Source: Candidatus Dormiibacterota bacterium
GTDB lineage: Bacteria > Chloroflexota > Dormibacteria > Aeolococcales > Aeolococcaceae
Length of the DNA stretch: 64,000 bases
Reading direction: 5' to 3'
NCBI GenBank assembly: GCA_963709585.1
Contig: CAVPXI010000014.1
Coordinates: 128,001-192,000, forward strand
Shown: positions 30,816 through 60,703 of the stretch, piece after piece
Numbering within the stretch: the stretch's first letter is position 1
Layout of the letters: every line of letters starts with the position of its first letter
Position numbers and translations under genes: made by a program
Notes under the pieces: model-generated
Seen by the model: only the letters and a program-made list of their open reading frames with translations
Databases searched by the model: none
What the model was told of the DNA's origin: nothing

Positions 30816-31011
30816 TCCCTTATGGTATAAAGGAAACCGGAGCGAGAGGGATTCGAACCCTCGATGCCGGTTTACCCGGCATACCGCATTTCCAGAAAGC
30901 GGATGTGGCCTGACCGGCCCCGTCTGGGACCGTCTCCTGAATACAAACAGCACGTTCGCGCCGTCAGGATCTGACTGGTCGTGACTCCCGGTTGGCATCG
31001 GCGTTGGCATC
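30816..31011 (-). mobile_element. att junction J1: tRNA-Ser(GGA) 3' fragment (30838-30895) plus arm region
   Basis: Reverse complement CTGGAAA TGCGG, variable arm, GAGGG TTCGAAT CCCTC TCGCTCCG; GTTGGCATC repeated at 30991 and 31003. Confidence 0.85.
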
Positions 31012-31037
31012 AAGCCGGGTGTCCATCGCAATCGCGG

Positions 31038-33595
31038 TCATTGGAACCAGCCGTCGACGTCGAGCGCGGCGTTGATGTTGCCCGCGGCGTTGAAGAGGTT
31101 GACGTCACCGACATGCGCGCCTGAGGCCAGGCCCACGACCACCAGGTTGGGCAAGGCGATGCCCGGGTTCACGTTGAGGTCCGAGACGTTTGGCTTCGGG
31201 CTCGCATCGGCCGGGTAGACCGTGAGATAGGTGGGCTGGCCGCCGCTCACCGCGGTGAGCGTGGCGATGATCGCCACCGGCCCGCTCCCTGGGATCCCGT
31301 CGACACCGGCAACGGTCACGAGCAGGGTCCCACCCGAGGTCAACTGGTGCCCCGAGCACAGGGTGCCGGTCCCGCTTCGGGTGTCGCAGATCCGGGTCGG
31401 CCCGATCGCCTGATACTGCGCCCCGGTCGGTGGACTGCCCGTCGTCGACCCGAACCAGCCGCTCGCGTCCAGGACCACGTTGATGGAGCCGGCCGCGTTG
31501 TACACGCACACATCGGTGCCCGGTCCACCGCTGTGGCTGGGGCCGAGGGGCACCATCACCCGGTTGGCCAACGCCTCGCCCGCCGAGACGTTGATGGTCG
31601 ACGAGGCGGGCACGCTGGTCAGACAGCTGCCGTTGCTCTGGGTCGGGAAGACACTCAACCAGGTGGCTTGGGTTCCTGCCACCGCGGTCAGGTTGAGCAC
31701 CGCCGCCCCGGCGCTGCCATTGGTCGGGATGCTCGCCGGCGTGCCGCTCACCCCGGTCGGGATGTCGGTGACATTTACGCGCATTACCTGACCGGAGCCC
31801 AGCCTGTTGTCGGTGCTCTGTCCCAGGTTGCAGCCGTTGGCCGGCTGCTTGGCACGGGTGTCGCAGACCCGCAGCGGCGCGATCGCATGGAACTCCCCCG
31901 CCGGGTTGCTCGACGCCTGGGGCACGAAATACCCCTCGACGTCAGCCACGACGTTGAGCGTGCCCAGGGCGTTGTAGATGTTGACCTCACGCTGGGCGTC
32001 GGAGACGCCGTCCTGGCCGAGCGCGACCGTGACCAGGTTGGCGATGTTCTCGTGGGCGCTGAAGTTGAGGTTCGAGGCCAGCGGCCGTCCGGTCCCATTC
32101 GGATAGACGGTGAGCAGGCTCGGTGCCGAGCCGTTGACGGCGACCAGGTTGAGCACCACAGCGGTCGCATTGGCCGGCACGGATTCACCGGTGCGCGCAT
32201 CCGTGTACCCAGTGATCTGGAGGGCAAGCGTCTGGCCTGCCCCGAGCGCGCCACAGGTGTGGATCCCGCAGAGCCCGGAGCGCGTGTCCAGGATCCGGAA
32301 TGGGGCGACCGGGACGAAGCTGCCCAGCCCCGTATAGATGTAGCTGGCGGCGGCGGTTGGAGTGCTGACGCCCAGGCTCGTGGTGACCACGAGCCGGTCG
32401 TATCCCGCCGGCTTGGCCGGGGTTGCAAAGGAAAACGAATACAGGGTCCTGTTCGTCGTCGTGACCGGGGTGCCTCCGAAGGTTGCGGTCATGCCCGAGA
32501 TGAACCGTATCCGTTTGCGGTGACGATCTGGCCGCCGCTCGTCGGGCCGGCCTCCGGGGACAGTGCGGTCACCACCGCTGCGCCGTAGTAGAGGTACGCG
32601 TCCGCTGGAGAAAGCGGACTCGAAACGCCCTGGCGATTGACCTGGACGGCCGCACTTCCAGCGGGGCGAACGGGAGAGACGAAACTGAAGGAGGTAGCGG
32701 TGACCGCGGTCGGGGTGACCTTAGTGCCGCCAATGCTTGCCGTCAAACCCGGCCCAAAACCAATCCCACGCACGGTGACAATCTGTCCGCCCGAAATCGG
32801 TCCGATGTTGGGACTGAGCGAGTTCACTCGCAGCGCTGGACCTACCGCGACTGCCATCCCATGAAAGCTGGAGATCATCCGTGTGAACTGGGACTCTGTG
32901 TACGTGTAGCGGATTCCGCTGTGATCTTCGAGGATCGTGACGTTATGGCCAGGGTCGGCGCCAACCACCACGATTGCATGATCGTAAGGGCTGTAGGGAA
33001 TGGTCTTTCCGTCGAAGGCCGTGTACGAACTGGTTGGATAGCCCGTACCGCCGGTCCCCAGGCTCCGCGTATCTATCCAGATGACCACTGGGTTACCGTC
33101 CAGAATCTGAGCTTCGATCTGTTGCGTCGTATAGCCGGTGCCAGCAAACGCAACCGTCGCCCCGGCCTCCTCGGCAATAGCGGCGATCGGCGCATAGTAG
33201 ACGCCGTAGCCGGTGTAATTCGCTTCAGAACCATACACGCTGCCGACAAAGGCTTTGAAGGCGTCACCCCAATACCGAACGCCGTTCTTGACGTGCGACG
33301 CCCGACCATCCTTGGGCAGTAAGTTGAACACCCAGTTCTGGAGTGGAATCCCGCCTGTGTTGACCTTTATGCCACGAATCGCGAGCGCCGCGGCCAACGA
33401 TGCCGATTCGCAGTCCAACGGCAGGTCCATCTTGATCGTGAAACCGGGATCCAGTTGAACCCCTCCGGAGGCGGCGGCTGGGGTCGATTGCCCTAGAAAC
33501 ATGAGCGATCCCATTGCAAGACCAACCACGGCCGTCCCTAATCGGATCCAGTGGCGGGGTGACGGATCGGCGATCGCAGGCGAGACGCGAGTCAT
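31038..33595 (-). CDS. Secreted C39-like peptidase + IPT/TIG + three 'RILDTR'-type surface repeats (frameshift at ~32500)
   Basis: DCESASL...HAIVVVG; IPT (SPNIGPISGGQIVTVRG); RILDTR/RVCDTR/RICDTR repeats ending in DVxGxF-like motifs. Confidence 0.75.
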
Positions 33596-33954
33596 GCGCG
33601 AACGCCTCCCGGCTTCAACGCTCGCATACCAATCAGCCTCCGGCTTCTCTCGGTTCTTCGTCTCGAGACAGTTCGCTTGTCGGGCTCGATAAGCGTGATC
33701 ACCACATGTCGCGTTCTTGCGCGGCACTTCCATCGCCTATCACCGATCCAAGTCGCAGCAATATTTGTAGTAGGCCCAAAGGTCCCAGAAAAGTGCTATT
33801 GGTCACCCGGCGAAAACTGCCTCGATCGCGCCCTCCCTCATGCAAGTGTTCATTCCGGGAGCCAGGATGGTTAAGTCACCGGCGCGAGACTGCGGATGGC
33901 CAGTCCGCCGAATAGCGAACGACTACGCAGTCACTCTGCGTCGACGTTCCGTGA

Positions 33955-34082
33955 CTTGTCATCACCGTTGGGCATCGCCGCCGCTTTGCCGAGTTCTAGG
34001 CAGCACGCCGCCTGGGTGATGGGCGATGTCGATAATCCCTATCCCATAAGAGCAACGCGGAGCGAGAGGGATTCGAACCCTC
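33955..34082 (-). mobile_element. att junction J2: truncated tRNA-Ser 3' fragment (34058-34082) with left arm only
   Basis: CGGAGCGAGAGGGATTCGAACCCTC, identical to J1; CTTGTCATC/GTTGGGCATC pair at 33955 and 33967. Confidence 0.75.
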
Positions 34083-34276
34083 AAACTTGCGCGCTGGGGT
34101 GGCACGCGACGCTGTATCGTGGACGCGCATCAGAGCATTGGAACTCTGGCACAGGCCCGTCAGGGGCGTCCTGCCGCCGTCGGAAGATGCAGCGCCAGCG
34201 TAACCTCCGCGCGACCAGCCATCTCGGCGTGCCCACCATGCTTGGTGGGTGTGCTCAGTTGGAAGGCGTCTCAGCG

Positions 34277-36778
34277 GTGGATCTGACCACTGAGCGAGGG
34301 TTCCGTGCCGTCGACATGATCAGTCGGGCCAGGGATGCCCAAGAACTCATCGACGCTGTCCTTCAGGGCCTTACATCGCATGGTCTGCGAGGCTCGTGGG
34401 GCACGCTCCGTGGTGATGAGGTGGTCATGGCCGGCGTCGCGGTGCCTGACGATGACACCGCGCGCATCGAGGAGATACTTCGGGTCCCGCTCGGATCGAT
34501 GCGCTTCCAATTGGCAGCCTACGCATCGTTCGCAACGGCCGTGCGCCGGCGCACCACAACCATCGAGGAAGCGTTCCCGCACCGGATGATCTCGATGTTT
34601 CCGAATCTCACCGACGCAGAAAGGGCCGCAGTCCGGAAGCACCTGGGTCCTGGCCCGTTGATGGTCGCGCCCATCACCGACGACGACACGATCCTCGGTG
34701 TACTCCTTGCATGGGGTCCGGGCGTGGCATCGAAGAGACGTGTGGTCGAGAGTCTGGCGACGCTGGCGGGATTGGCATGGCACAGGGTGCAAGCACCCAC
34801 GGGGGCGGTTCGCGCACCCGACAAGAGGAGCGTCTTCCCGACCGGTGAGCTCGCGAACGCCATCGCCGAGCTCCTCTCCCCCGGCACCATGCGCGCAGCG
34901 CTCCAGCCCGTTGTCCGTCTACGGGATCGCACCGTGCTGGGCTACGAGGCACTCTGCCGCTTCACACCGCGTGGTGGCTTACGGACGCCTGACGACCTGT
35001 TCGCGGCCGTCATCATCACCGGCCAGAAGCTCGACGTCGACGCTGCCTGCTTGACCGCGGCGTTCGCCGCCGGGACCCAAACGCCGCCGGCTACCCTCTT
35101 CGTCAACGTTGCCGTGGAGACGCTGGTCGAAGGAAGCCCGGCTGGAGACCGCCTCTCGCGCATGACCGAGACTGCGGGAGTTGCTCCGGAAAACGTCGTC
35201 CTCGAAGTGAGCGAACGCACTCCGATCGGCGATCTCACGCGCTTGCGACAAGTCGTCGCTGAGCTGCGCGCACGCGGCTTTCGCATTGCCATCGATGATG
35301 CCGGCGCGGGCCACGCCAGCATGCTCGTTATCGCCGAGGTGCAACCCGAGTTCATCAAGATCGACCGGGAGCTGATCCATGGGATTGACGTCAGCGCCGC
35401 ACGGCGTGCGTTGGCGGTCTCGCTGCTCTCCTTCGGGGCGCATATCAACGCTCGTGTCATCGCAGAGGGTATCGAAACCGACGATGAGCTCCAGACGCTA
35501 CTGAGCCTGGGTGTTCAATTCGGCCAGGGGTGGCTCCTCGGCCGCCCCGTAATGGTCGCGCCGCCGCTGGATGCGACCAGCGTGGTGGCCGTCACGTCCG
35601 ATTGGTTCAAGGAGCAGCGCACCGCCTCGTTCAGAACCGTGGTCCTCGAGGTATCGCCTAACCACCTCGATGGCCGCAAGCCGGCAGCGCTTGAACCCAC
35701 TGGAAAACGGTCTGCTCTGCCCCGCGCCCTTATCAATGCCGCTGCGGCGCTCCAGTCGGAGCACGACCCAGCCGGCATTCTGCGGGTCATCGCTGAGCAG
35801 CTGCCATCCGTTGTCCCTGTTGACGCTGTCTATATCTATGCCGCCGACGAGAGTGACAACAGGTTCCTCCCGGTCTATGCCACGGGGAGCGAGGCCAAAG
35901 CGCGGATGGCATACGGCTACTCCATGGATCTGGGCGTGAATGGGTGGGCATTCAAGCTTGGAATACCGCAGTACGTGAAGGATGTCAGCGCACACCCTGC
36001 GACGATCACGATTCCTGGAACGCCCGTTGGCGAGGCCGAGTCGTACCTCATCATCCCCCTCATCGCTGGGGATCGGCGGCTGGGTGTGCTCGACTGCAGC
36101 CGGCTGGGCACCAATCGATTTACGAGCCGCGACTTGGAGGCAGCAGCGCTATTCGGTCACACGGCGGCTGCCGCATGGCGCAATGCTGAGCTCCACGCGG
36201 AGCTGACCGAGCGCGCCATCTTGGACCCTTTGACGGGTCTCCTTAACAGTCGATGGCTTCGCGAGGTCGGCGAGCGCGAAGTGTCTCAGAGTCTTCGCAG
36301 TGGTCAGTCGCTTGCGGTCCTGGTGCTCGACCTCGACCGGTTTAAGCAGATCAACGATACCGGGGGGCACAGTGCGGGTGACCTCGTGTTGCGCCGGGTG
36401 GGCACTGTGCTCACCGGCATGATTCGCGCCGGTGATGCAGCGGTACAACTCGGCGGCGAAGAATTCCTCATCGTTCTCCGTGATACCGACACGGCAGGTG
36501 CCGAACGGGTGGCGGCGGAGTTTCGCGATCGGCTCGCAGCAGTTCCTCTCCCCCGGAGCTGTCTGCCTCGCCGCAAGCTCACGGCTTCTGCTGGCGTCGC
36601 CGTGCTTCCTCAGAATGGGAGCGGCCTCTCCGAGTTGGTGAGGGCTGCGGATGTGGCCATGTATGAGGCAAAGCGCGCAGGTGGTGATCGGCACCAACTC
36701 AGTTCCCACCGCCCAAACAACCGGCCATCAGTGCGACACAACGGCAAGATCGCTGCTGCGGCTGTCTTGCCCCGCTGA
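34277..36778 (+). CDS. EAL-GAF-GGDEF cyclic-di-GMP enzyme
   Basis: GYEALCR, IDDAGAG, IAEGIET, a GAF domain, DPLTGLLN, LGGEEF. Confidence 0.88.
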   Translation: MDLTTERGFRAVDMISRARDAQELIDAVLQGLTSHGLRGSWGTLRGDEVVMAGVAVPDDDTARIEEILRVPLGSMRFQLAAYASFATAVRRRTTTIEEAFPHRMISMFPNLTDAERAAVRKHLGPGPLMVAPITDDDTILGVLLAWGPGVASKRRVVESLATLAGLAWHRVQAPTGAVRAPDKRSVFPTGELANAIAELLSPGTMRAALQPVVRLRDRTVLGYEALCRFTPRGGLRTPDDLFAAVIITGQKLDVDAACLTAAFAAGTQTPPATLFVNVAVETLVEGSPAGDRLSRMTETAGVAPENVVLEVSERTPIGDLTRLRQVVAELRARGFRIAIDDAGAGHASMLVIAEVQPEFIKIDRELIHGIDVSAARRALAVSLLSFGAHINARVIAEGIETDDELQTLLSLGVQFGQGWLLGRPVMVAPPLDATSVVAVTSDWFKEQRTASFRTVVLEVSPNHLDGRKPAALEPTGKRSALPRALINAAAALQSEHDPAGILRVIAEQLPSVVPVDAVYIYAADESDNRFLPVYATGSEAKARMAYGYSMDLGVNGWAFKLGIPQYVKDVSAHPATITIPGTPVGEAESYLIIPLIAGDRRLGVLDCSRLGTNRFTSRDLEAAALFGHTAAAAWRNAELHAELTERAILDPLTGLLNSRWLREVGEREVSQSLRSGQSLAVLVLDLDRFKQINDTGGHSAGDLVLRRVGTVLTGMIRAGDAAVQLGGEEFLIVLRDTDTAGAERVAAEFRDRLAAVPLPRSCLPRRKLTASAGVAVLPQNGSGLSELVRAADVAMYEAKRAGGDRHQLSSHRPNNRPSVRHNGKIAAAAVLPR

Positions 36779-36836
36779 TCTGACCAGGACGAACGAGGGA
36801 ACCCCACTCGGGGGATTCTCACCAGTATCCTCTTCC

Positions 36837-36900
36837 ATGCGCGTCCTAGTTCTCGGCGCGGGGTTTGGTGGTCTGGACAGCTGCGAACTCCTGAGCAACT
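36837..36900 (+). pseudogene. N-terminal remnant of an FAD-dependent oxidoreductase (SQR/Ndh-like)
   Basis: MRVLVLGAGFGGL, then similarity is lost just before the J3 arm. Confidence 0.55.
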
Positions 36901-36925
36901 TCACCCGTGCCGGATGGCTCAAGCC

Positions 36926-37187
36926 GTTGGGACTTCACTGGGACTCAGACACCATTGGGCGCGAGTAGGTCGCGCCGTTTGATAAGGCGAAGTTCCTTAT
37001 ATTGCAATGGAAAACCGGAGCGAGAGGGATTCGAACCCACGTGGCGGGTTACCCCACCAACCGCATTTTCAGAGCGTCTGAGCGGGGTGCACGGAGGGGC
37101 ATACGGGGGCACTCCGTATTCGAAATCGAAATGGAAAGGGCACCGCGGGGCAGGCGCGGGCAACCGCGTTGGGTCTCCGTTGGGTCT
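36926..37187 (-). mobile_element. att junction J3: tRNA-Ser 3' fragment (37016-37072) with both arms
   Basis: Core as in J1 but loop CTGAAAA; GTTGGGACT/CTGGGACT on the left; GTTGGGTCT at 37168 and 37179. Confidence 0.87.
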
Positions 37188-37243
37188 GGGATTAGGGGCA
37201 TTTCGTCCCTGGGGACTCCGGAGCTTAGAGGTTCTGGACGTTC

Positions 37244-37984
37244 TTATCCAGGTCGGTCTGACGTCCGCGCGCTTGACGCGTGCCGGGGGTCGGGGTTAGG
37301 GTCCAGTTCGGCCAAGTCGTCCGCGAGTTGGAGCGTTTCCTCTACATGTCGCTGCGTCAGGTCGGCCGCAGTCGGGATGTCGCGCGCTGCCAGCGCGGCA
37401 GCGATCCGACTGTGGCCAACACGGCTCGTCCTGCGCAGTCCACGATCGCGCAACACGATGGCTCGGTAGCGATCAGTTCGTGTCCACAGCTGCTCCAACA
37501 GATCAGCAAGAACTTCGTTGTGCGAGGCCGCATAGATGGACAGATGAAAGTCACGATGAGCGCGAAGCTGCGCGTGCAGGTCTCCGGCGTGTGACTGCCG
37601 CGCTAGCGCTGAGATCTCTCTGAGTTCTCGTGGGGTGGCTGATTCTGCGGCCAGGCTGGCAGCGAGCGGCTCAAGCCGCACGCGCGCAACGCACAACTCG
37701 CCGAGTTCGCGCCGCGTCAGGGGTAGGACGCTCACAACCCGGTGTGGGCGAAGCGCGATCAGCCCCTCGCCCTCGAGACGACGCAAGGCCTCGCGAAGCG
37801 GAGTGACAGACAGGCCCAGAGCGTTGGCGAGGCTCTCCTGGTTTATCGTCGATCCCGGAGCGAGCGTCCCCTCAAGTATCTGCGCCCGAACCTCGACATA
37901 GGCTGCTTCGGCCTTGGTCAGAGCAATAAGGGGAACCCTTGTATACGGCGACGAAATGGCCACCCTACGCTCCACGTCTTTCAT
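37244..37984 (-). CDS. GntR family regulator (FCD)
   Basis: LGLSVTPLREALRRLEGEGLI; HRDFHLSIY. Confidence 0.88.
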   Translation of the reverse strand: MKDVERRVAISSPYTRVPLIALTKAEAAYVEVRAQILEGTLAPGSTINQESLANALGLSVTPLREALRRLEGEGLIALRPHRVVSVLPLTRRELGELCVARVRLEPLAASLAAESATPRELREISALARQSHAGDLHAQLRAHRDFHLSIYAASHNEVLADLLEQLWTRTDRYRAIVLRDRGLRRTSRVGHSRIAAALAARDIPTAADLTQRHVEETLQLADDLAELDPNPDPRHASSARTSDRPG

Positions 37985-38066
37985 CTCCGAGCAACTGTTT
38001 ACACGAGCGTCGACGCTGGTGCGCTACCAGTCTATTCTCGCTCGGAGGTCCCATCGACCGATGACC

Positions 38067-39546
38067 TCACCGTCCAATGCCCTCCGCGCCCCTCCCCTGC
38101 CAAGGCCCCAGGTACTCAGCGAGCTCCGTCGCCACGGCCACGACCTGCGAATCGTGATAGGGGCGTCCGATGACCTGCACGCCCACTGGGAGCCCCTCAT
38201 CAGACTGGCCGCACGGAACAACCACGGTCGGAGCTCTGAGTAGCGTCACAACCCGACAGCAGCTCTCGATTTGAACTCCGTACAGGGTGTGTCGACCGAC
38301 CGTGAACTCGTCGGATCGCGGCGCAAAGGCTGGCACCGAGGCTACTGGCATGAGCAGAATCGGCCACTGCGCCATAAACCGATTGACCCGCAGTCGAATT
38401 TCGTCAGCTAAAGCGGTCAACCTTTGGAATTCCGTAAGTGTGCCTTCAGGACGAGACTCGGCCAGCCACCCGCGAACGTAGTCTGTCAATTCATCCTCGC
38501 GGCCCTGCCACAGACGTTTGTGGTCGGCGAGACCATCGAGGTTGCGGAGCGCGCGGTAGACGGACTCTGCCTCGTCCAGACCCGGCGGCCGCCGTTTGAT
38601 AACCCGAGCACCGCGATCAGCCAGCCCTTGGGCGGCGCGCTCGACCACCTTGACCACATCGGCGCGAACCGGGTGGCTACCGTCCCCGTCGCACCAGGCG
38701 ACGCCGACGCCGGCGGTGCTCTGACCCGCCGGTGATCCAAGTGGCACCGGCACGGCGTTGCCATCGACCCCATCGGGACCGGCCATCACCCCCAACAGCA
38801 CCCAGAGATCACGTATCGAGCGAGCAATCGGCGCAATCGTCTGCAGGCGCGCTTGCATCGATGCACTGTTTGGTGGAACCGGTGATGGAGAGGCTTCAAA
38901 AGGGAGTTGCCCGGTTCCCGGGACGATGCCAGGTGTTGGGCGAAGGGAGACCAGCCCAGTGCAATGGGCGGGTAGTCGAATGGACCCTCCGTAGTCAGTG
39001 CCAATGCCAAAGCCGACCATGTGGGCGCCCACCGCAGCCGCATCGCCACCGCTTGATCCTCCAGGGGAAAGTCGGTGGTCAAGAGGATTCAGAGTGTCCC
39101 CGAAAAGACGATTTCCGGTGTGGATTGCGAGCCCAAATTCGGGGCAGTTTGCCTTTCCAAGAAGAACGGCTCCGGCCGCGCTGAGACGCTCGACGGCTGT
39201 GGAGCCCCAGGGGGACGCGAAATCGCGCAAGATCAGGCTTCCGGCGGTGGCACGCACATCGCGTGTCGCGATGAGATCTTTGACCGTAAATGGGACACCG
39301 GCTAGCGGTCCCGGGTCGACGCCCCGAGCCGTCGCATCGTCGATAGATCTCGCCTGCTCCATCGCTCGATCATCAAGGCGCGTAACGATCGCATTTAAGA
39401 TTGGGTTGCTCGAACTCGACCTGCTCAATATGGGCGGTCAGTACCTCGACGGCGCTGATTTGGCGACGTTTGACACGCGCTGCAATCTCGACTGCCGACC
39501 AATCGACTGGCGATCCGTCGGCGCCGTCAGTGGGTGTCCGCATCAT
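38067..39546 (-). CDS. Amidase signature enzyme (frameshift at ~39414)
   Basis: GVPFTVKD, PGGSSGG, GTDYGGSIRLPA, GLPVGVQVIG. Confidence 0.9.
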
Positions 39547-39596
39547 CGCCCCCAGCAACCGCGAGACACCGCGAGTCGGGAATCGTCACCAGGTAT

Positions 39597-40322: not shown

Positions 40323-40348
40323 CGTGCCTCTCCTTGTCGATCCGTTCT

Positions 40349-41498: not shown

Positions 41499-41500
41499 TC

Positions 41501-51588: not shown

Positions 51589-51738
51589 CTGCGACTACAC
51601 GCCATTGAGAGGGTTGAAGGCTCAGGTGTTGACGGCGTTGTCGAGTCGCAACACGCGGGCACGTAGCTCACGGCTCGACACCTAGGACGTGTTCCACTAC
51701 CCGTGGCAACGCAATTGGTGACTGGTGCGACCCATGAC

Positions 51739-52008: not shown

Positions 52009-52208
52009 GGATTTGCGGGCTCAGCGGCACGCTGTGCGGCGACCAAGTACGTCAGGTGACAAGACGCTGGTGTGACCAAGGCTGATCGCACAGGTCGATG
52101 TGGTCGTTAGCGACGAGCACCGTAGTTGTGCCCGAGCGTCGACGACGCGCACTCTGAGCGCAGGGCGCCTGGGGTTGCGTCAGAGGGGGACGCTAGCGAG
52201 GAGATCGA

Positions 52209-52871
52209 ATGCCCACCGTGACGGGTCGCGCATACGATGAGCCTGTGGACGAAGTCTCTCCACCACCGGCGAAGGTCGCCTTCGACAAAATGCTGAGCGG
52301 CATCTTTCTCGTCGTCACACTCCCCGTGTCGCTGGTAATCGCCGCCGCCATCGCCATCGAGAGTGCCGTGTGCCCATCGCACCGCGGTGGAGTGTTTCAT
52401 TCTGAGTTCAGGGTGTCAGCAGGGCCCTTCAGGCTCTACAAGTTCCGCATCCTGACTCCTGCCGGCGAACAGGAAATCAAGGCAGGAGCGATGCCCAAGC
52501 ATGTTGAGAACACCCCCAGCAATCTCACCGTAGTCGGTGCGGCGCTGAAGAAGATTGGGTTGGATGAATTGCCTCAATTCCTCAATGTCATAACGGGAAA
52601 GATGAGCCTTGTTGGGCCGCGACCCAAGCCGCCTGCAGAGTACAAAGAGGAGATCGAACTTGGCCATGAGTTCCGCGCCCAGCTTCAGGCAGGCCTGACG
52701 GGTCCGGCACAAGTGTTGAAAGGTACCGTTCGCACCGGCGATGACTCGCTTCGCGCCGACCTGGAGTACGCGGATCTGTTGCGCAAGGGATCACAACTGC
52801 AGATCCTCGCGTACGATGCAAAGACGCTCCTGAAGACCGTGCGCGTGCTATTCAGGGCCTCCGGCGAGTAG
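52209..52871 (+). CDS. Orphan sugar transferase (Bac_transf)
   Basis: YKFRI, LDELPQFLNVITGKMSLVGPRP, GLTGPAQV. Confidence 0.82.
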   Translation: MPTVTGRAYDEPVDEVSPPPAKVAFDKMLSGIFLVVTLPVSLVIAAAIAIESAVCPSHRGGVFHSEFRVSAGPFRLYKFRILTPAGEQEIKAGAMPKHVENTPSNLTVVGAALKKIGLDELPQFLNVITGKMSLVGPRPKPPAEYKEEIELGHEFRAQLQAGLTGPAQVLKGTVRTGDDSLRADLEYADLLRKGSQLQILAYDAKTLLKTVRVLFRASGE

Positions 52872-53301
52872 GCGACCGCATGCCCCGTAAGCTGCGCACC
52901 TCCTGACGCAAGCCCGCCGTTTGGATGGGAACATAGCCCGCAATGCGCGGGGCGAGCTTTGTACAGACGTTCGTGATCGACAAGAGCAGCTCGGCCAAAG
53001 GCGCCAAGGGCCGGTGCACAATCGCCGCTCTCAAGCCGATTGGGTCAGCAGGAGTTGCCTGATGATCACGCCACTTGTGTCCGACTGGCGGACTCGAGTG
53101 ACCCAGCGCACCGAACACCCTTGGGGTCGGCCCAAACAGTGGATCGTCGCCATGGACGAAAGCTCGAGCGCGCGCGAGGCTCGCGTGCGTGAGGAGCTTG
53201 AGATCAAGCTGAGGCATCATTCTCAGCCCTGTCGAAGTCCGACAACACGCGTATGGCCCTTGGCGTACTCCCTCGCTGAGGGCACCGTCGCGGGGGTCTG
53301 G

Positions 53302-53616
53302 CTAGCCGGATACGGGTTCTGGTAGCTCAGCTACCCATGGCTCGAGCAGGCGTCCAAAGTTGACCGTCCAGCCCACGCCGAAGACTGTCGGAACCACGAC
53401 GCGACGATCTGCTGGGTTCCAAAGTCGCTCGCGAACCCGTCCTGGGGTTGGCGGACGGAGGTCGTAGGGGATCCGACCGGCGATGCGGCCGTGCCATGTC
53501 CGCTCCTCTGGTGGCTTGCGCAGCTCGATGGCCACAGCGGCGCCGATCAGGGTCAGGCCTACTCCGACGCCCAGCCATCGCGACCTGGACCTTTGTCTGT
53601 GTCGGCGTTCACTCAT
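53302..53616 (-). CDS. DUF5808-like small membrane protein
   Basis: ERTWHG, PYDLRPPT, WNPADRRVVVPTVFGVGWTVNF. Confidence 0.7.
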   Translation of the reverse strand: MSERRHRQRSRSRWLGVGVGLTLIGAAVAIELRKPPEERTWHGRIAGRIPYDLRPPTPGRVRERLWNPADRRVVVPTVFGVGWTVNFGRLLEPWVAELPEPVSG

Positions 53617-53953
53617 GGGGATATCCTCCGTCACCTGCGAGGCTACCACCACCAGAGGGATCAACACATTGGCCCGTGGCCGGTTTTTCATGAAGGCAGC
53701 GGGGTCCGCTCTGACCTGATCGCCAGCAATCCCGCATCGCGCGTCCGCGCTTCTCGCGTCGACAAAGCTCCGGGTGCTTTTCTCACTCCCAGCGAAGCGT
53801 GTCGTTTGGTGGACCTGCTCCACTGAGACCGCGCGCGTCCGCCCTTAGTCGTCGCCATCAGGTGCGATGCGACGGCCCTGCTCTTCTCTGTTGCCGGGCG
53901 ATTGACCCCGACGGAACAGGGAACACTCGCTACTAACGAAGGCTCAAACGACG

Positions 53954-54212
53954 ATGCGCCGGATTACCACTATCACTGGCCCGGATGGGCAGGTCACCAC
54001 GGTAGTCACCCGCAGCTCCGGGTGCGGCTGCCTGACCATCCTCGCCGCCATCGTCGTCTTTCGTCGTCCCAGCGGGGTTCGGAGCCTGGGCCGTGCCCGC
54101 CTACTGCCTCCTCGGCGTCCTCGTCGTCGCCGGCGCGCTGAGCGCGCTCATTCGCAGGCGTGGGCCGCAGCCGCCGCCTGCACCCGCACCGCCTCCTCCA
54201 CGCGCGACCTAA
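53954..54212 (+). CDS. Small membrane protein (probable frameshift at ~54060)
   Basis: SGCGCLTILAAIVVF, continuing in the shifted frame as VVPAGFGAWAVPAYCLLGVLVVAG...PPPAP. Confidence 0.4.
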
Positions 54213-54377
54213 CTAGGTCGCTGTCGTCTGGCGAAAGCGCCGCGGGTGATTAATCCTTCCTGGTGCGCAGCAGGCAGAACTCGTTGCCAGGCTGCCTGCC
54301 AGCATGGAAGCGGTCGTGTTCGGACCCGACAGAGGCGCGTGACATGCCCGCCTGCCCGAATGTCACATGTCGGGCGG

Positions 54378-55670
54378 TCAGCCGTCTCGGAACAACCCGC
54401 GCCGCAGCGCCGCTGCCGTCAACTCGTCCTGAAAACGTGGTGCTGCGAGGGCAATGAGAGCATGAGCGCGATGGGCCAAGTCCATTCCGTGGAGGTCGAT
54501 GCGACCGTGTTCGGTGGCGACCCAGTGCACGTGTGCACGGGAAGTTGTCACGCCAGCACCGTCCGCAAGCGTGGGGACGATCCGCGAGAGCTGGCCGCCG
54601 CGTGCAGTTGACAACAGGGCAATCACCGGACGGCCACCACGTGACAGCGCCGCTCCCCGCATGAAGTCCATCTGCCCACCCACGCCGCTATACATGCGTG
54701 CGCCGATTGATTCCGCGCAGACCTGCCCGGTCAGATCGATCTGCAGTGCGGAGTTGATCGCCACCATGTTGTCGAGACGAAGGATGGTCCGTGTGTCGTT
54801 GGTGTACTCGAAGGAGCGCATCTCCAGCATCGGGTTGTCGTTCGCGAAATCGTAGAGGCGTCGGCTGCCATTGAGGAACGCCACGACGAGCTTGCCTCGG
54901 TTGATGGTCTTGCGACTGCCGGTGATCACACCCGCGCTAACCAACTCGAGCACGCCGTCCGACACCACCTCGCTATGCACTCCAAGCTCGCGACGGTCGC
55001 CGAGCAGTCCCAGGACGGCGTTGGGGATCGCGCCAATCCCAAGCTGGAGTGTGGCCCCGTCCTCAATCAGCTCTGCGACATTTCGACCGACGGCAAGATG
55101 CTCCGCAGTGATCACAGGCGCGGAGGCTTCGGGCAGCGGTTCGTCCACCTCGATCACAGCGTCGAAGTCGTTGAGGTGGATAAACGAATCGCCGTGCGTT
55201 CGCGGCATCCTTGGGTTGATCTGGGCGATGCGCAGTCGCGCCGCGCGCGCGGCCGCGAGCGTGCAGTCCACCGAGACACCCAGAGAGCAGTAGCCGTGCA
55301 GGTCCGGAGGCGAGACATGGAGGAGCGCCACATCTAGCGGCAGTCTGCCCGTGCTGAACAGGCGAGGCACGTCTGAGAGGAACACGGGCAGGTACGTCGC
55401 CGCCCCGGTCGCCACCGCATCGCGCGTGGTCGAATCGACGAACAGAACGCAACGACGGATGTTCGGAGCCGCGGCCGAGGCCGCCCTGGCGACGTCACCA
55501 TTGACGTGGAGATGGATCAGCTCCACGTCATGAAGTTCCGACCTGCGGTCCAGGAGGGCGCCGAGGAGCGCGCCTGGCACAGCGCTGCCGGCGTGGAGGT
55601 AGACACGGTCTCCGCTCTTGATCAGTCGGACGGCCTCTCGGGCCGACGTTGCCTGCTTGGGCGCCGTCAT
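54378..55670 (-). CDS. Acetyl-CoA hydrolase/transferase (4-hydroxybutyrate CoA-transferase-like)
   Basis: VSPPDLHGYCSLG, TLQLGIGAIP, GVHSE, SGVGGQMDFMRGA. Confidence 0.9.
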   Translation of the reverse strand: MTAPKQATSAREAVRLIKSGDRVYLHAGSAVPGALLGALLDRRSELHDVELIHLHVNGDVARAASAAAPNIRRCVLFVDSTTRDAVATGAATYLPVFLSDVPRLFSTGRLPLDVALLHVSPPDLHGYCSLGVSVDCTLAAARAARLRIAQINPRMPRTHGDSFIHLNDFDAVIEVDEPLPEASAPVITAEHLAVGRNVAELIEDGATLQLGIGAIPNAVLGLLGDRRELGVHSEVVSDGVLELVSAGVITGSRKTINRGKLVVAFLNGSRRLYDFANDNPMLEMRSFEYTNDTRTILRLDNMVAINSALQIDLTGQVCAESIGARMYSGVGGQMDFMRGAALSRGGRPVIALLSTARGGQLSRIVPTLADGAGVTTSRAHVHWVATEHGRIDLHGMDLAHRAHALIALAAPRFQDELTAAALRRGLFRDG

Positions 55671-55966
55671 ATGCTGATTGGTTCGGCGGTGCCGAGCATG
55701 CTCTCCTCACTGATGGGTCGGGGGCCTCCACCAATGCCCGTGCTGAGGCTCGCCCGACCGTCATAACAATCTCAGCAACACCCCGGAGATCGGCGACGGT
55801 TAGCCGGAGACCAGTCGAGCTCTTGCGAGGAGTCAGTGGTGGCGCTGCGGGCCACAAGACGCTTGTCTGAGCGACGCGGCTTTCCTGCTAGATCTTTCTG
55901 AGCTGGCGATTCGAACCCAAGAAGCGCAAGTGTTGGTGGATCGCTGGAGACCAGAGCAAGTTTGGT

Positions 55967-55995
55967 TTGACAACCTAGCATCTGCTTGGTATACT
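55967..55995 (+). promoter_or_regulatory. Near-consensus sigma70 promoter
   Basis: TTGACA-17 bp-TATACT with extended -10 TG; GGAGG RBS before 56054. Confidence 0.75.
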
Positions 55996-56053
55996 TAGCG
56001 CAGCCTCTCAAGTAGGACCCCCAACGGGACCCGGAGGTGACGAGGAAACAGTC

Positions 56054-56341
56054 ATGACCGACCACGCCGACAAGACCCGCACCGCCAATGCCGCACTGGC
56101 AGAAGGCCTCCAGCAGACAACGGAGATCAAGCTCGCGGCCACCGAGGTCCTCAAGGGCATCACCTCCGTCCTGGTTCCACTGACCGTGTTCATGCTTCCC
56201 AACTCTGAGAAGCTCATCCCGGCCATCGACACCGTCGTGGATCGCAACTTCGACATCGTCACCAAGTTCGTCGAGTGGCAGTACGAGTTTGGGGTCGCCG
56301 TCCTCAATCAGCTGGGGTCCTTCGCGCCCACCTCCAACTGA
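56054..56341 (+). CDS. Small helical protein, possibly phasin-like
   Basis: Strong promoter, RBS and terminator; amphipathic VVDRNFDIVTKFVEWQYEF. Confidence 0.55.
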   Translation: MTDHADKTRTANAALAEGLQQTTEIKLAATEVLKGITSVLVPLTVFMLPNSEKLIPAIDTVVDRNFDIVTKFVEWQYEFGVAVLNQLGSFAPTSN

Positions 56342-56347
56342 TTCCGG

Positions 56348-56380
56348 CAGGAGCGCGCAGCGCGACGCTGCGCGCTCCTG
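56348..56380 (+). terminator. Perfect 15-bp stem hairpin
   Basis: CAGGAGCGCGCAGCG-cga-CGCTGCGCGCTCCTG, just after the stop codon. Confidence 0.65.
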
Positions 56381-56401
56381 ACCACAACGCTTGAGTTGAG
56401 C

Positions 56402-57109
56402 ATGATGAGCGTCCCATGCGCACCGTCCAGGAACTTTCTCCTTCAGGCACTGCCCCCCCTGGAACGGGATGCGTTGTTTGCCCATCTTCGCCCGACTGCT
56501 CTGTCCGTAAAGACGGTGCTCTTCGAGCCTGGGGAAGCGATCGAGTCGGTCCACTTTCCGCTCGACGGCGTCATTTCCCTGGTCACTCCATCCGCCGGCG
56601 GCAGCGTCGAGGTGGCGACCATTGGGAATGAGGGGATTGTCGGGGTGCCTCTCATCCCCGCCGGAGTTAGCTGCGTCCGGGCCGTATCGCCGGTGGGTGC
56701 TCAGACGCTGCAGATGGGCGCCGCGACATTCCTAGCCGAAATTGAGCGCTTGGACGCCTTCCGCCGGCTCGTCGAACGCTACCTGCTCGCACTCTTCGCG
56801 CAGATCTCTCAATTGGCCGCGTGTAATCGCCTCCACGCCACCGAGCAACGGCTCTGCCGTTGGCTGCTCATGACCCATGATCGGGTCGCAACGGACACGT
56901 TCCCGGTCACCCAAGACGTCCTCGGGCAGATGCTCGGCTCTCGGCGTGGGACCGTCACTCTCTCGGCCCAACTCCTCCAAGCGGCGGGTCTGATCGCATA
57001 TCACCGAGGGCGCGTCACCATCGTCGATCGAGAGGGTCTCGAATCCGCTTGCTGCGAGTGCTACGCGACCCTGAAGCATCGGCTGGATCGCGTGCTCGCC
57101 CCCGGATAG
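56402..57109 (+). CDS. Crp/Fnr family regulator
   Basis: VEVATIGNEG, EQRLCRWLL, TQDVLGQMLGSRRGTVT, ACCECY. Confidence 0.9.
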   Translation: MMSVPCAPSRNFLLQALPPLERDALFAHLRPTALSVKTVLFEPGEAIESVHFPLDGVISLVTPSAGGSVEVATIGNEGIVGVPLIPAGVSCVRAVSPVGAQTLQMGAATFLAEIERLDAFRRLVERYLLALFAQISQLAACNRLHATEQRLCRWLLMTHDRVATDTFPVTQDVLGQMLGSRRGTVTLSAQLLQAAGLIAYHRGRVTIVDREGLESACCECYATLKHRLDRVLAPG

Positions 57110-57443
57110 TGCGCGCACTTGCCTGTCTTCGGGTCATATCAGCAGGCGGTAAGCGGATCCAGGAAGCCAGACTCCTTGCCCCAATAAAGAGACAGACGGC
57201 GGTCGAGAGCGATTTGCGACGCTGAACCCGCCACACTCGTAGCCAGGCGAGTGCGTGGCAACGCTGATCAGGCCGAACGGGTGGCTCCGCGGTTGCAGTT
57301 GCGGGTTCGCTCCGGCGGCTTTGGCAGACGCCGGGAGAAATCGGGCGTAGGATCGTAGGTGGAAGTGGGGAGTCGCTCTCGCGCGCCGGCGCGCCGCGCG
57401 AGAGCGACCCATTGTCAGCGCCGTTACAGGTAGGGCAACCAGC

Positions 57444-58622
57444 GTGGAAGAGGCCGTCATTGTCAGCGCCGTCCGGACACCGGTAGGCACCCTGGGGGGC
57501 ATATTCGTCGAGGTTCCGGCGACGACGCTCGGTGCCATCGTGGTGGAAGAGGCCATCCGTCGCGCCGGCATCGACGTCGACCAGGTCGAGGAAATCCTCA
57601 TGGGGAACGTGCTACAGGCAGGGCTCGGCCAGAACCCGGCGCGGCAGGCGGCGCTCGGAGCCCATCTGTCGACCGCTGTCCCAGCCATGACCGTCAACAA
57701 GGTGTGCGGCTCTGGACTGAAGACGGTGGCATTAGCCGCTCAGGCGATCCGCCTCGGCGATGCCGAGTGCATGGTGGCGGGTGGCATGGAGAACATGTCG
57801 CGCGCGCCATACCTGATGGACGGCGGGCGCTACGGCTATCGCCTCGGCCACGGGCAGCTGGTGGACGTGATCATCCGCGACGGACTCTGGTGCGCCTTCA
57901 CCGACTGCCATATGGGCATTACCGCAGAGAACGTGGCCAAAGAATGGGAGGTGAGCCGGGCCGATCAGGATGGCTTTGCGGTGGCCTCGCAACGAAAGGC
58001 TGGCGACGCGATCAAAGCGGGCCGATTCAAGGACGAGATCGTTCCCGTCCCGGTGGCGCGCCGCAAGGAGACCGTTCTGGTCGACACAGATGAGCACCCG
58101 CGTCCCGCCACCACTCTGGACCTCCTGTCGGGCCTGCGCTCTGCCTTCACAAAGGACGGTAGCGTCACGGCCGGTAACGCAAGCGGTATCAACGACGGCG
58201 CAGCTGCCGTGGTGGTGATGAGCGCATCACGCGCCAAGGCCCAGGGCCTGACTCCGCTGGCCCGAATCCGCAGCTACGCCAGCGCCGGGGTGGAGCCTCG
58301 CATCATGGGGATCGGGCCGATACCGGCGGCGCGGAAGGCCATGGACAAGGCCGGCGTCGGTGTCCGTGACATCGACCTCTTCGAGTTGAACGAGGCCTTC
58401 GCCGCTCAGTCGGTGGCGGTGTGTCGGGAGCTGGCCGTCCCTGAGGACAGAGTCAACGTCAACGGCGGCGCCATTGCGCTGGGCCATCCGATCGGTGCCA
58501 GCGGAACACGCATTCTCACCACGCTCCTGTACGAGATGGCTCGCCGCGACGTGGAGCTGGGCATTGCCGCTATGTGCATCGGCGGTGGCCAGGGCATCGC
58601 CATGGTGGTCAACCGCGTCTAG
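57444..58622 (+). CDS. Acetyl-CoA C-acetyltransferase (thiolase, AtoB/PhaA type)
   Basis: NKVCGSGL, NEAFAAQ, GGAIALGHPIGASG, MCIGGGQG. Confidence 0.95.
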   Translation: MEEAVIVSAVRTPVGTLGGIFVEVPATTLGAIVVEEAIRRAGIDVDQVEEILMGNVLQAGLGQNPARQAALGAHLSTAVPAMTVNKVCGSGLKTVALAAQAIRLGDAECMVAGGMENMSRAPYLMDGGRYGYRLGHGQLVDVIIRDGLWCAFTDCHMGITAENVAKEWEVSRADQDGFAVASQRKAGDAIKAGRFKDEIVPVPVARRKETVLVDTDEHPRPATTLDLLSGLRSAFTKDGSVTAGNASGINDGAAAVVVMSASRAKAQGLTPLARIRSYASAGVEPRIMGIGPIPAARKAMDKAGVGVRDIDLFELNEAFAAQSVAVCRELAVPEDRVNVNGGAIALGHPIGASGTRILTTLLYEMARRDVELGIAAMCIGGGQGIAMVVNRV

Positions 58623-58839
58623 CACCTCCTCGAGCGGTGACGAACGCGGAGTGCCGGCGTCGCTGGCGTGACGGACGGCGCCGCACGCGGCGAGGGCCGA
58701 ACTCTGGAAGCGCCGCAAACTGCGAGACCTTCGGCGCCAGTCACGTGACCAACGGCCCTGGTCCGGTCAGGGCCACAAGCGTTTTACTGGGATCCGTCCA
58801 AGCCGGGACGAAGCCAACTGATTCGCGAGGAGTCGCCCC

Positions 58840-59778
58840 ATGAAAGCTGCCGTCGTGCACCGGTTCAAGCCGGCACTCATCGTCGAGGAGCGACCGATCC
58901 TAACCCCGTTGGTCGTCGAAGCCGCCCTCGGCCCTCAGGCGGCCGGACTCCCCAATACGAGTATTCGTGCCACCGAATGCGACTGGCCGATGGAGCGAGC
59001 ATTACCATTTGTCCGCGGAGACAGGCCACGGCTGAATCTGCTGCTCCTCGGGGCGCCGGCCAGTGGTAAGGGGACGCAGGCGGACCTTTTAGCCGCGCGC
59101 CTCGACATTCCCGCGATCGCGACGGGGAACATCCTGCGCGCCGAGCTCGCCGAGCGGACCGAGCTGGGGCTGCGCGTCCAGGCCTACATGCAGCGCGGCG
59201 ACCTGGTTCCGGACGCGCTGATGATCGACATCATCAGGAAGCGCCTGCGGGGGAGCGACCGCCGGGACGGCTTCCTACTCGACGGCTTCCCCCGCACCGT
59301 GCCCCAAGCCCGAGCGCTCGACGCGCTGGCGGCGTCGATGGCGACTGGCTTCGACCGCGTCCTATACCTGAACGTGCCCGAGGCTGAGCTGATCCGGCGC
59401 ATCACGACCAGGCTGACCTGCCCGGGCTGCGGACGAAGCTACGGGTTCGAGGCTGACCAGCCCCGACCGTTGGGCTGCGAGGCGGACGGCAGGGACCTCA
59501 TCGTGCGCGAGGACGACCGGCCGGAGACCGCCCAGCGCCGTATTGCGGTCTACCTGGAGAAGACGTTGCCGGTGCTCGATCACTACCGCAAGCAAGGGCT
59601 GGTCGCGGAGATCGAAGGCATCGGCTCAGTCGAGGAGGTCTCCCGGCGCATGCTGCGCGCGCTTCCCGCTCGGCCGGTGGCACAGCGTGTGCTGGGTTTG
59701 GTTGGACGTTCTCGAGGGCAGACCTCAGCGGCACGAGCGCTGGATGGCCAAACCAAACCACACGCCGGTTATCGATGA
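58840..59778 (+). CDS. adk: Adenylate kinase with a decayed alcohol-dehydrogenase-like N-terminal extension
   Basis: LLGAPASGKGTQA, GDLVPD, LDGFPRT, REDDRPE. Confidence 0.82.
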   Translation: MKAAVVHRFKPALIVEERPILTPLVVEAALGPQAAGLPNTSIRATECDWPMERALPFVRGDRPRLNLLLLGAPASGKGTQADLLAARLDIPAIATGNILRAELAERTELGLRVQAYMQRGDLVPDALMIDIIRKRLRGSDRRDGFLLDGFPRTVPQARALDALAASMATGFDRVLYLNVPEAELIRRITTRLTCPGCGRSYGFEADQPRPLGCEADGRDLIVREDDRPETAQRRIAVYLEKTLPVLDHYRKQGLVAEIEGIGSVEEVSRRMLRALPARPVAQRVLGLVGRSRGQTSAARALDGQTKPHAGYR

Positions 59779-60089
59779 GGTGTACGACGGTCCGCAGGTG
59801 CTCCAGGTCGAGGGCGAGACCCGCGACGAGGCGAAGCTACGCTGGGCGATCGCGAATTGAGCTGAACTCGAAGCCCACCAACCGGAAGCGGGGGCGCATG
59901 GAGAAGGTCGGCACCTCTTGAGCTTGAACTCGCAGTCAGCCACTCTCCAACGTCTACATCAACGTCTGCATCCGCGACAAACACGAGAACATCGGGGAAC
60001 ACGTGGAGACAACTAGTTGGCGAGGCACCGACGTCTCGCCCCATAACCGAAGGGCTGCGGGCTCACGTCAGCAGCCGGAGGGTGATCCA

Positions 60090-60431
60090 ATGGAGCGACA
60101 GATCATCGAATACGAGGATCGCTCGACCGGCGAGCTGCTGAGCAAGGCGTTTGTCGCGAGATGGCTGATCGAACCGGACGAGCATTACCGCTCAGTGCAC
60201 GAGGGTGATGACCTACGCAGCGGGACTCAGGTGGTGGGCGGCACTACGTTCGCCGTCGCCGAGACCGCCAATGGGCAGATGGTGATCTGGAGCGACGCGC
60301 ACAGGTCCAGATCGACATACGACGTCTACGACGGCTTCGATGAGGCCGAGTCCGCGGGCGTCCCTGGTGATGTCGTCGCCATCGCTTCCGATCGAGCCGG
60401 CATCGAGCGCGCTGGACTGCTCGACATTTAG
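60090..60431 (+). CDS. Hypothetical protein
   Basis: GGAGG RBS and ATG at 60090; acidic ORF. Confidence 0.45.
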   Translation: MERQIIEYEDRSTGELLSKAFVARWLIEPDEHYRSVHEGDDLRSGTQVVGGTTFAVAETANGQMVIWSDAHRSRSTYDVYDGFDEAESAGVPGDVVAIASDRAGIERAGLLDI

Positions 60432-60495
60432 CACCCCTCACGAAGTAGGGCCGCAGGCGGCGTCGTTTCGTCAGCGCAAACGCGTTTGCCTGGTG

Positions 60496-60703
60496 ATCGG
60501 AATCACATTGGCATCAGATGAGCCCCTCGTTGAGTCGGCGTGGACGCGATATTTGCAATGTGAGCCGTCCAATTGCCTTATCTGCTAAGGGAAACGCGGA
60601 GCGATAGGGATTCGACCCCTCGTGGCGGGTTTCCCCACCAACCCGGATTTCCAGAGCGTTTGAGCGGGGTGCAAGACAGGGTACGGAGGGGCATTTCGTA
60701 TTC
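60496..60703 (-). mobile_element. att junction J6: degenerate tRNA-Ser 3' fragment (60597-60654), right arm truncated
   Basis: CGGAGCGATAGGGATTCGACCCCTCG...TTTCCAG, then GAGCGGGGTGCA...GTATTC as in J3-J5. Confidence 0.82.

Follow-up and report, generated by a model that had tools for sequence, protein, structure and literature searches.

Tandem tRNA-Ser(GGA)-derived junctions and the integrase-less blocks between them in a soil Dormibacterota genome

The attP sites of lambda/P4-type integrases consist of a core that overlaps the 3′ half of a tRNA gene, starting at the anticodon loop, and of arms that carry direct-repeat arm-type sites at fixed distances. Integrons comprise the integrase IntI with an attI site at the head of an array of cassettes, most of which are one promoterless open reading frame (ORF) ending in an attC hairpin site. 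The locus described here lies in a 64,000-nt window of a Candidatus Dormiibacterota genome (positions 128001-192000 of contig CAVPXI010000014.1, hereafter C14) and is made up of six partial copies of tRNA-Ser(GGA) with blocks of other DNA between them. Window positions carry the prefix w, and the same numbering is continued along C14 beyond w64000. In the published account of cis-mobilizable elements (CIMEs), elements without integration or transfer genes keep attL and attR, and a tandem accretion model in three steps is set out (PMC5704250). In the description of tycheposon islands, nothing but a partial island tRNA stands between elements, and remnants and partial tRNAs are dispersed across the islands (10.1101/2020.12.28.424599); tRNA fragments are presented as a general by-product of integration (PMC9897764). 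We consider it probable that the region under study is a tandem accretion of integrase-less, att-flanked, CIME-like remnants downstream of tRNA-Ser(GGA).

The 3′ part of tRNA-Ser(GGA) recurs in six copies on the minus strand, as recovered by a repeat search, by alignment of the six with one another and by blastn from the resident tRNA (Table 1). All are co-oriented, lie on the strand of the intact gene, and start 3220, 2958, 10130, 4691 and 8760 nt apart, which confirms the starts and spacings reported in a first-pass annotation of the window. That annotation had also stated that the long copies stop at the anticodon loop, and this holds for five of five: they measure 57-58 nt, and their first base is the start of the loop CTGGAAA (CTGAAAA in c37016). 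Two of the long fragments match the resident tRNA at 57/58 to 53/58 positions, and the others have distinct, stem-preserving variable arms. As for the intact gene, which had been predicted to lie to the right, ARAGORN found no tRNA in the 64-kb window, and tRNA-Ser(GGA) is located at C14 c[234610,234700] (w106610-106700), divergent from tRNA-Ser(CGA), 46.0 kb to the right of c60597 and 76 kb from the outermost fragment. The intact tRNA-Ser(GGA) genes of different congeners also have differing variable arms with the stem preserved, as expected if elements supply the 3′ half.

A junction profile run with nhmmer against the whole assembly (24 contigs, 3.5 Mb, 88.8% complete) matched the six sites, tRNA-Ser(GGA), a single fragment in a separate island (C4:62977) and, weakly, the two other tRNA-Ser genes. 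Since the matches are confined to the array, the tRNA-Ser genes and C4:62977, the junction repeat is not scattered. These searches bear on the idea that the copies have nothing to do with integration and belong to a family of dispersed repeats or small RNA genes that merely resembles the tRNA 3′ half, an idea to which we give next to no credence. The ~170-260 nt upstream of the fragments are conserved between copies and between genomes, as in such a family. Yet, on the junction profile, no copy was reported anywhere but downstream of tRNA-Ser(GGA), the homology begins exactly at the anticodon loop, and the same arms flank true integrase genes in relatives. Rfam (E ≤ 0.1, w26000-64000) returned only four sub-threshold matches to a plastid 3′ untranslated region family, antisense on the tRNA fragments; they are due to tRNA-Ser antisense and are uninformative.

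In tRNA orientation, the junctions are about 270 nt long and run from a P arm (~170-260 nt) through the tRNA 3′ half (O) and a short hairpin (CCTTA-NNNN-TAAGG-like) to a P′ arm, with paired direct repeats, spaced 10-11 nt, at a fixed distance from the tRNA 3′ end. Two repeat flavors are present: type A, CCCAAC..CCCAAC (CCCAACG.AG.CCCAAY), and type B, GATGCCAA..GATGCCAA. Repeats in P start 168-169 nt (type A) or 172 nt (type B) upstream of the tRNA 3′ end, and those in P′ lie 74-83 nt downstream of it (type A, 74-82; type B, 83; degenerate B-like, 82). A loose type-A regular expression matched 22 times genome-wide, five times in the array, always on the tRNA strand, and 17 times outside; the exact form CCCAACG.AG.CCCAA occurs four times, only in the array and on the tRNA strand, and all 17 outside matches differ from it. 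The intact tRNA-Ser(GGA) of the window genome has neither a P′ hairpin nor arm repeats. In a census of 20 non-tRNA junctions in the fetched loci, paired repeats were present in P in 14, in P′ in 11 and in both in nine. An attempt to order the integrations by the variable-arm variants of the fragments was dropped; the variants do not track P′ type cleanly.

The junctions are attP-like P-O-P′ sites that repeated insertion into the tRNA gene, by tyrosine integrases, has left behind. Their paired repeats are putative arm-type binding sites for the integrase N-terminal domain, as suggested by the fixed layout and by the co-variation of the repeats with integrase lineage. With lambda/P4-type attP sites they share the core-plus-arms layout, and autonomous relatives have an integrase gene next to P′; they differ in that the arm-type sites are putative and that no excisionase was identified for type-A or type-B elements. 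Of the features of a tRNA-targeting integrative element, the direct repeat of the tRNA 3′ part from the anticodon loop is present, and the integrase beside the att site is absent in the array.

If the region grew by tandem accretion, tyrosine-integrase elements would have inserted successively into the tRNA gene with crossover in the anticodon loop. Each arrival would supply its own tRNA 3′ half, shift earlier elements leftwards and leave a ~270-nt P-O-P′ junction, so that the blocks between junctions would be att-flanked and non-autonomous, most of them here decayed or composite. Block 4, and roughly block 1, may be excisable, alone or with neighbors, by a type-A or type-B integrase from a new element. 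The cargo would be further reshuffled by att-independent recombination, importing modules found at ordinary chromosomal sites in sister species.

Recombinases are missing from the array by every search applied. Six-frame scans of the whole genome with hidden Markov models (HMMs) for PF00589, PF14659, PF12728 and PF00239 gave no match within C14:150-240 kb, and the nearest PF00589 match on C14 lies at 321552, 87 kb past the intact tRNA. Three integrases from relatives, used in tblastn at E ≤ 10, matched the array only where those frames overlap the tRNA. Pfam was run on 79 ORFs chosen by GC content at third codon positions (GC3), of which 35 lie in the window and the other 44 in the stretch from its right end to the tRNA; this revealed no integrase, excisionase, relaxase, type IV secretion system, phage gene or primase/helicase/polymerase replication module. 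Among 13 ORFs searched against PHROGs, most of them without a Pfam match, only the DUF4231 protein described below had a hit, to a family whose function is unknown, and eight of these 13 gave no match in PADLOC. The reported lack of any integrase, excisionase, relaxase or phage gene in the blocks is thus borne out by Pfam, six-frame HMMs and tblastn alike.

A related island elsewhere in the genome retains its machinery. The tRNA-Ser(TGA) island (C4:62978-70928, ~8 kb) is complete, with the same layout as the junctions and a third repeat, TGACACC, in both arms; it contains an integrase (C4:69595-70704), an HTH_17 excisionase-like gene (C4:69357-69506) and a distal fragment from the anticodon loop. 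This tRNA-Ser(TGA) integrase is the nearest paralogue in the window genome to the type-A integrase described next; it is 50% identical and goes with different arm repeats (TGACACC).

Junctions and matching integrases also occur elsewhere in the genus. A 301-nt junction query against 36 same-genus genomes, from which a dubious 24-nt match in G025 was left out, found the type-A P arm in 15 (G002, G005, G007, G008, G009, G010, G012, G015, G016, G017, G021, G022, G023, G032 and G033). The arm is also present in G063, outside this sample; genomes of the sister family (G039, G044, G048, G056) gave tRNA-level matches only and are not used for any conclusion drawn here. Four of 41 congeners (G016, G005, G036, G062) have an integrase that shares 54% identity or more with the type-A enzyme. 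An integrase sits directly downstream of tRNA-Ser(GGA) or a fragment of it in G016 (twice) and G005, and next to P′ also in G036 and in L050, one of five related loci, from a metagenome-assembled genome (MAG), where the order is fragment, hairpin, CCCAAT pair, integrase. The G016 and G005 enzymes have Phage_int_SAM_3 and Phage_integrase domains. The tRNA-adjacent integrase of G016 is associated with a type-B P′ and with a type-B P arm at the far end. The other G016 integrase shares 54% identity with it and has type A both in P′ and at its far end; the G005 enzyme, at 77% identity to this other one, has type-A-like arms. Arm flavor follows integrase lineage, with two lineages at the same tRNA. 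Parts of the window array recur at these loci: the type-B P arm of block 1 is found at junctions of G016, G015 and L050, and the P′ repeats of block 4 match, in motif and placement, those before the integrase gene at the G016 fragment junction. In seven of ten genomes checked by coordinates (G017, G012, G008, G010, G002, G022, G033), the tRNA/junction stretch is free of PF00589 matches; the other three are G016 and G005, with integrases, and G015, with a 173-aa integrase fragment.

Defense-type genes stand directly beside the integrase in three of the loci from relatives, L042 (G016:C11:118001-138000), L044 and L045: type I restriction-modification, TIR, SRA-HNH, AAA_15/AAA_21 ATPase and SIR2-like genes, together with a second integrase and a lone phage-capsid-family gene. 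Conjugation genes and a replication module were absent from the 14-20 kb scanned beside each relative's integrase. A tRNA-Ser junction can also lie inside or beside an island at another tRNA: at 9672-9880 of locus L023 (G010:C3:34001-48000), a type-A-like P arm and a tRNA-Ser(GGA) fragment are located ~6 kb downstream of tRNA-Thr(GGT) and of the integrase beside it.

The array resembles tycheposon islands, as presented in their description, in being a tRNA-proximal island with metabolic cargo in which successive integrations push older elements inwards (10.1101/2020.12.28.424599). In the same description, however, tycheposons are defined by an integrase and a replication module, neither of which is in this array, and fragmented integrases occur among the remnants, with none here (10.1101/2020.12.28.424599). 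The integrase-bearing congeners differ as well, carrying the defense-type genes and no replication module within the stretch scanned.

The blocks carry one to eight genes on both strands, with their own GntR, TetR, MerR or Crp regulators by Pfam, and Pfam also upheld the cargo labels given earlier, apart from that of SLATT. Block 1 encodes a 484-aa protein without a Pfam match and a Peptidase_C39_2+TIG protein. In block 3, a GntR regulator, an amidase, an aminotransferase-cyclase and a split permease (w37227-42987) are followed by a cyt-b561/ferric-reductase/ApbE module (w43130-47132). Block 4 holds a 98-aa ORF, TetR, SDR, DUF1330, the cut start of a further SDR gene, MerR and a CitMHS-type permease, and block 5 a sugar transferase, a DUF5808 protein, an acetyl-CoA hydrolase/transferase, a Crp-type regulator, a thiolase and an adenylate kinase. 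Block 6, proximal to the tRNA, begins after c60597 with a DUF4231 (PF14015) protein, then GntR and metabolic genes; DUF4231 is probably related to SLATT, the label used in the first-pass annotation.

Only block 4, and roughly block 1, keep an attL and attR pair; in the other four of six (blocks 2, 3, 5 and 6) the pair is lost or mixed. Because type-A repeats stand at both of its ends, block 4 can be read as a complete att-flanked, integrase-less element. Block 5 appears composite, since its P is type A and its P′ type B. At most two of the six blocks would be excisable as units by a single integrase, judging from the arms they retain. With no integrase between the junctions, the blocks are CIME-like: they lack integration and transfer genes, and attL and attR survive in block 4 and roughly in block 1. 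They differ from CIMEs in that up to six integrase-less blocks are stacked here with no functional element among them, most with one arm lost; in that no conjugation genes or remnants show descent from an integrative and conjugative element (ICE) or an integrative and mobilizable element (IME); and in that the host is an uncultured soil lineage and not a streptococcus.

Table 1. Positions of tRNA fragments, blocks and arm repeats, in order along the window
Feature	Window position	Strand	Remarks
tRNA fragment c30838	30838..30895	-	58 nt, anticodon loop to 3′ end; outermost; 91% identity to resident tRNA; own variable-arm variant
Block 1	30896..34057		3.2 kb; P arm B, P′ B-like degenerate; roughly complete
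Type-B repeats ATGCCAACGCCGATGCCAAC, P arm of block 1	30991..31010	-	start 172 nt upstream of c30838 3′ end
Degenerate B-like repeat GATGCCCAACGGTGATGACAAG, P′ arm of block 1	33955..33976	-	82 nt downstream of c34058; position counted from sequence
tRNA fragment c34058	34058..34082	-	25 nt, T-arm and acceptor only; no recognizable P arm upstream
Block 2	34083..37015		2.9 kb; EAL-GAF-GGDEF protein; P′ A-like, P lost, core 25 nt; incomplete
Type-A-like repeats CCCAGTGAAGTCCCAAC, P′ arm of block 2	36926..36942	-	74 nt downstream of c37016
tRNA fragment c37016	37016..37072	-	57 nt
Block 3	37073..47145		10.1 kb; P arm A, P′ lost; incomplete
Type-A repeats CCCAACGGAGACCCAAC, P arm of block 3	37168..37184	-	168 nt upstream of c37016
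tRNA fragment c47146	47146..47203	-	58 nt; 57/58 identical to resident tRNA
Block 4	47204..51836		4.6 kb; type-A repeats in P and P′; sole complete type-A pair
Type-A repeats CCCAACGCAGACCCAAC, P arm of block 4	47299..47315	-	169 nt upstream of c47146
Type-A repeats CCCAACGCAGACCCAAC, P′ arm of block 4	51739..51755	-	82 nt downstream of c51837
tRNA fragment c51837	51837..51893	-	57 nt
Block 5	51894..60596		8.7 kb; P arm A, P′ arm B; mixed
Type-A repeats CCCAACGGAGTCCCAAT, P arm of block 5	51989..52005	-	168 nt upstream of c51837
Type-B repeats ATGCCAATGTGATTCCGAT, P′ arm of block 5	60496..60514	-	83 nt downstream of c60597
tRNA fragment c60597	60597..60654	-	58 nt, most diverged copy; P arm is ~70 nt of type-A sequence beside core, paired repeats gone
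Block 6 (tRNA-proximal)	60655..64000 in window (w60655-106609)		46 kb; P truncated, P′ absent at tRNA; incomplete

The 484-aa ORF of block 1 (w31038-32492, GC3 0.88) has no PHROGs or PADLOC match either and belongs to a multicopy family. This genome has at least four further members, 66-81% identical in DNA, and most congeners have members too; one in G010:C3 also adjoins a tRNA-Ser-type junction. Immediately left of the outermost junction, a 435-aa ORF (w28985-30292) with weak DUF6484/Phage_base_V matches contains two 76-nt direct repeats that are 86% identical and 105 nt apart (w29250-29430).

Comparison with relatives was calibrated on conserved genes in w12000-30900, which are ~77-86% identical to their counterparts in congeners. 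A copy of the amidase part of block 3 (w37227-42987), with 95% identity, is found at G017:C22:29042-34794, where it stands second from the tRNA and has no P-O at its far end. Block 2 with the c37016 junction recurs at 92% in G063, with the TetR/SDR module as direct neighbor, and at 88%, truncated, in the G012 array; G019 and G022 carry the EAL-GAF-GGDEF gene alone, at 89-92% identity and outside an array. The acetyl-CoA-hydrolase/Crp part of block 5, which G033 and G019 share at 94-97% identity, ends at w54356 in three contexts, in one of which (G033) the P arm is cut within its repeats. Blocks 1-4 are absent from G033, since its left flank, 94-98% identical, is joined to w54356 through a single junction. 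No P-O junction was found by nhmmer (E < 0.1) beyond the acetyl-CoA-hydrolase module in G019 or the amidase part in G017. A marker gene on the far side of the variable region (w27375-27848) lies 79 kb from the tRNA here and 21-33 kb from it in G019, G017 and G008. Block content and order are not fixed among relatives, and the shared units are often not att-to-att. Of the outcomes that had been named in advance as contrary to an att-based array, none occurred: the blocks hold no decayed integrase, the repeat is not scattered in this genome, and relatives carry arrays of different content and order.

Some cargo recurs at sites outside arrays. At least 17 of 41 congeners have the TetR-SDR-DUF1330 module (w47834-49834, 2 kb) at 92-97% identity, against the baseline of ~77-86%, and in each of five genomes checked it occupies a different chromosomal site. 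Empty sites matching two of its insertions are present in the window genome (C4:114539-114615 and C4:253782-253792). The left end of the module is sharp (GAATGAACCC...), and the right end is ragged inside the cut second SDR gene. Insertions in G008 and G003, compared with the empty sites, showed neither a target-site duplication nor a terminal inverted repeat, and no mobility gene was seen in the module. Its summed contig depth is 10-50x that of the flanks in four soil metagenomes. The adenylate-kinase-like gene (w58716-59767) has a second copy, 97% identical, at C7:246564-247615, and G009, G022 and G019 carry the thiolase-kinase module outside arrays at 92-93% identity.

Five soil-metagenome runs carry at least a quarter of the sampled words of w46500-52500, and Logan contigs from four of these runs were compared with w42501-62500 at 90% likeness; no circle appeared among them, and such contigs cannot show one. 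The contigs of the four runs are at least 99% identical over most of the compared stretch, with ~w60500-62500 lacking contig cover. One contig from run X4 passes from w47224 through 13 other letters to w51928, with 77 nt on its shorter side, leaving out block 4 and keeping a single junction; its breakpoints fall inside both flanking junctions. A second X4 contig skips w51813-52004, so that the junction itself is deleted, and an X2 contig matches from exactly w47146 rightwards, its first 228 letters being unlike the stretch to the left of w47146. These joints fit block-level variation at att sites. Two further joints, 47319>51837 in X1 (side 22) and 45533>55471 in X3 (side 21), are weak and were not used. 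Against the same stretch, the contigs show single-base indels at a dozen listed places (e.g., w47074, 47513, 49303, 54059 and 55681), often in every covering contig. The assembly probably carries indel errors, and for that reason the split genes (the permease at w41501-42919 and, further right, AMP-binding and amidohydrolase genes) need not be pseudogenes.

An assembly artifact, in which the contig was mis-joined at short tRNA-derived repeats and mixes strains or species, could be imagined for a genome in 24 contigs that is 88.8% complete. Logan contigs do break at the tRNA fragments (e.g., w47174-47188), and some cargo is 94-97% identical to that of other species. We nevertheless judge a mis-join highly improbable. 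The repeats are short and diverged (a shared core of 25-58 nt; 62-87% identity over longer spans), similar arrays are contiguous with the tRNA in congeners assembled in 1-20 contigs (G008, G012, G002), G033 has the left flank and junction at 94-98%, and contigs from four runs match the compared stretch at ≥99% over most of its length.

Tandem accretion of decayed remnants has several observations to contend with. Decay of large elements should leave integrase pseudogenes, and there are none in the six blocks (one fragment in G015), from which it follows that deletion was clean every time or that the blocks never had an integrase. The arms are well kept, as the nine of 20 junctions with repeats on both sides attest. 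Small blocks (3-10 kb) occur in several genomes, which, with the kept arms, also fits a maintained non-autonomous class. The repeats are putative integrase-binding sites, as suggested by layout and by co-variation with integrase lineage. Because the genome is 88.8% complete, its missing remainder may include a cognate integrase. The metagenome contigs, taken at 90% likeness, may derive from related organisms, and the best-holding runs may include the source of the window itself.

Several of these points enter into an alternative in which a pool of non-autonomous cassettes is maintained by selection and is regularly excised, traded and put back at tRNA-Ser(GGA) among co-occurring soil Dormibacterota by rare helper integrases of two specificities, giving an integron-like economy with tRNA att sites. 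Because six blocks lack any integrase trace while arms are often kept, this pool deserves some weight, though we think it unlikely. It would account for the absence of integrase remnants from every block, the paired repeats on both sides of nearly half of the junctions (9/20) and the small blocks elsewhere (~5.9 and 5.4 kb in G012; ~4.5 and 3.3 kb in G016:C19). Junction arms (15/36 congeners) are commoner than integrases (4/41), the blocks have regulators of their own, the block missing from a metagenome contig is the one with a matched type-A pair (block 4), and cargo identity reaches 92-97% against a baseline of ~77-86%. On the other hand, arms are lost or mixed in four of the six blocks here, shared stretches often end inside the arms or before reaching them (the amidase part in G017; the cut P arm in G033), the most promiscuous cargo (TetR/SDR) moves without an att site, and the assembly has no cognate integrase. 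Accretion of CIME-like remnants is the explanation that we favor.

The first-pass annotation went further and proposed non-autonomous cassettes loaded and shuffled by an integrase acting in trans, functionally an integron with tRNA att sites in place of attC. Action in trans is conceivable, since integrases fitting these sites occur elsewhere in the genus. The integron-like system itself is not supported: most blocks have lost or mixed arms, the units are multigene and self-regulated, sharing is often not att-to-att, and the assembly shows no cognate integrase. Likeness to integrons is confined to an ordered, co-oriented array with units between recombination sites and with content that varies among relatives. 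The array has no IntI beside it and no attI or attC hairpin sites; its own sites are P-O-P′ junctions of lambda/P4-type integrases, derived from the tRNA and ~270 nt long, in which the repeats run directly and are not inverted, and its units contain several genes on both strands with their own regulators. "Integron-like" therefore overstates the case, and the array probably belongs to a known kind, CIME-like accretion, in a little-studied lineage. A literature search for integrases or genomic islands in Dormibacteria listed no paper that names the group, which does not show that none is in print.

As a worked example, the locus presents a tRNA hotspot that has grown to 76 kb in an uncultured soil lineage. 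It supplies concrete parts, namely, two attP architectures with candidate arm-type sites, matched to two integrase lineages. In the genus, att-flanked integrase-less blocks are several times commoner than integrases, which bears on how far gene flux depends on a few helper elements. Were the cassette pool real, the blocks would not be mere wreckage but would form a tRNA-att counterpart of the integron cassette pool, with self-regulated metabolic modules as its currency. Conserved metabolic and regulatory modules travel between congeneric species both through and outside att sites.

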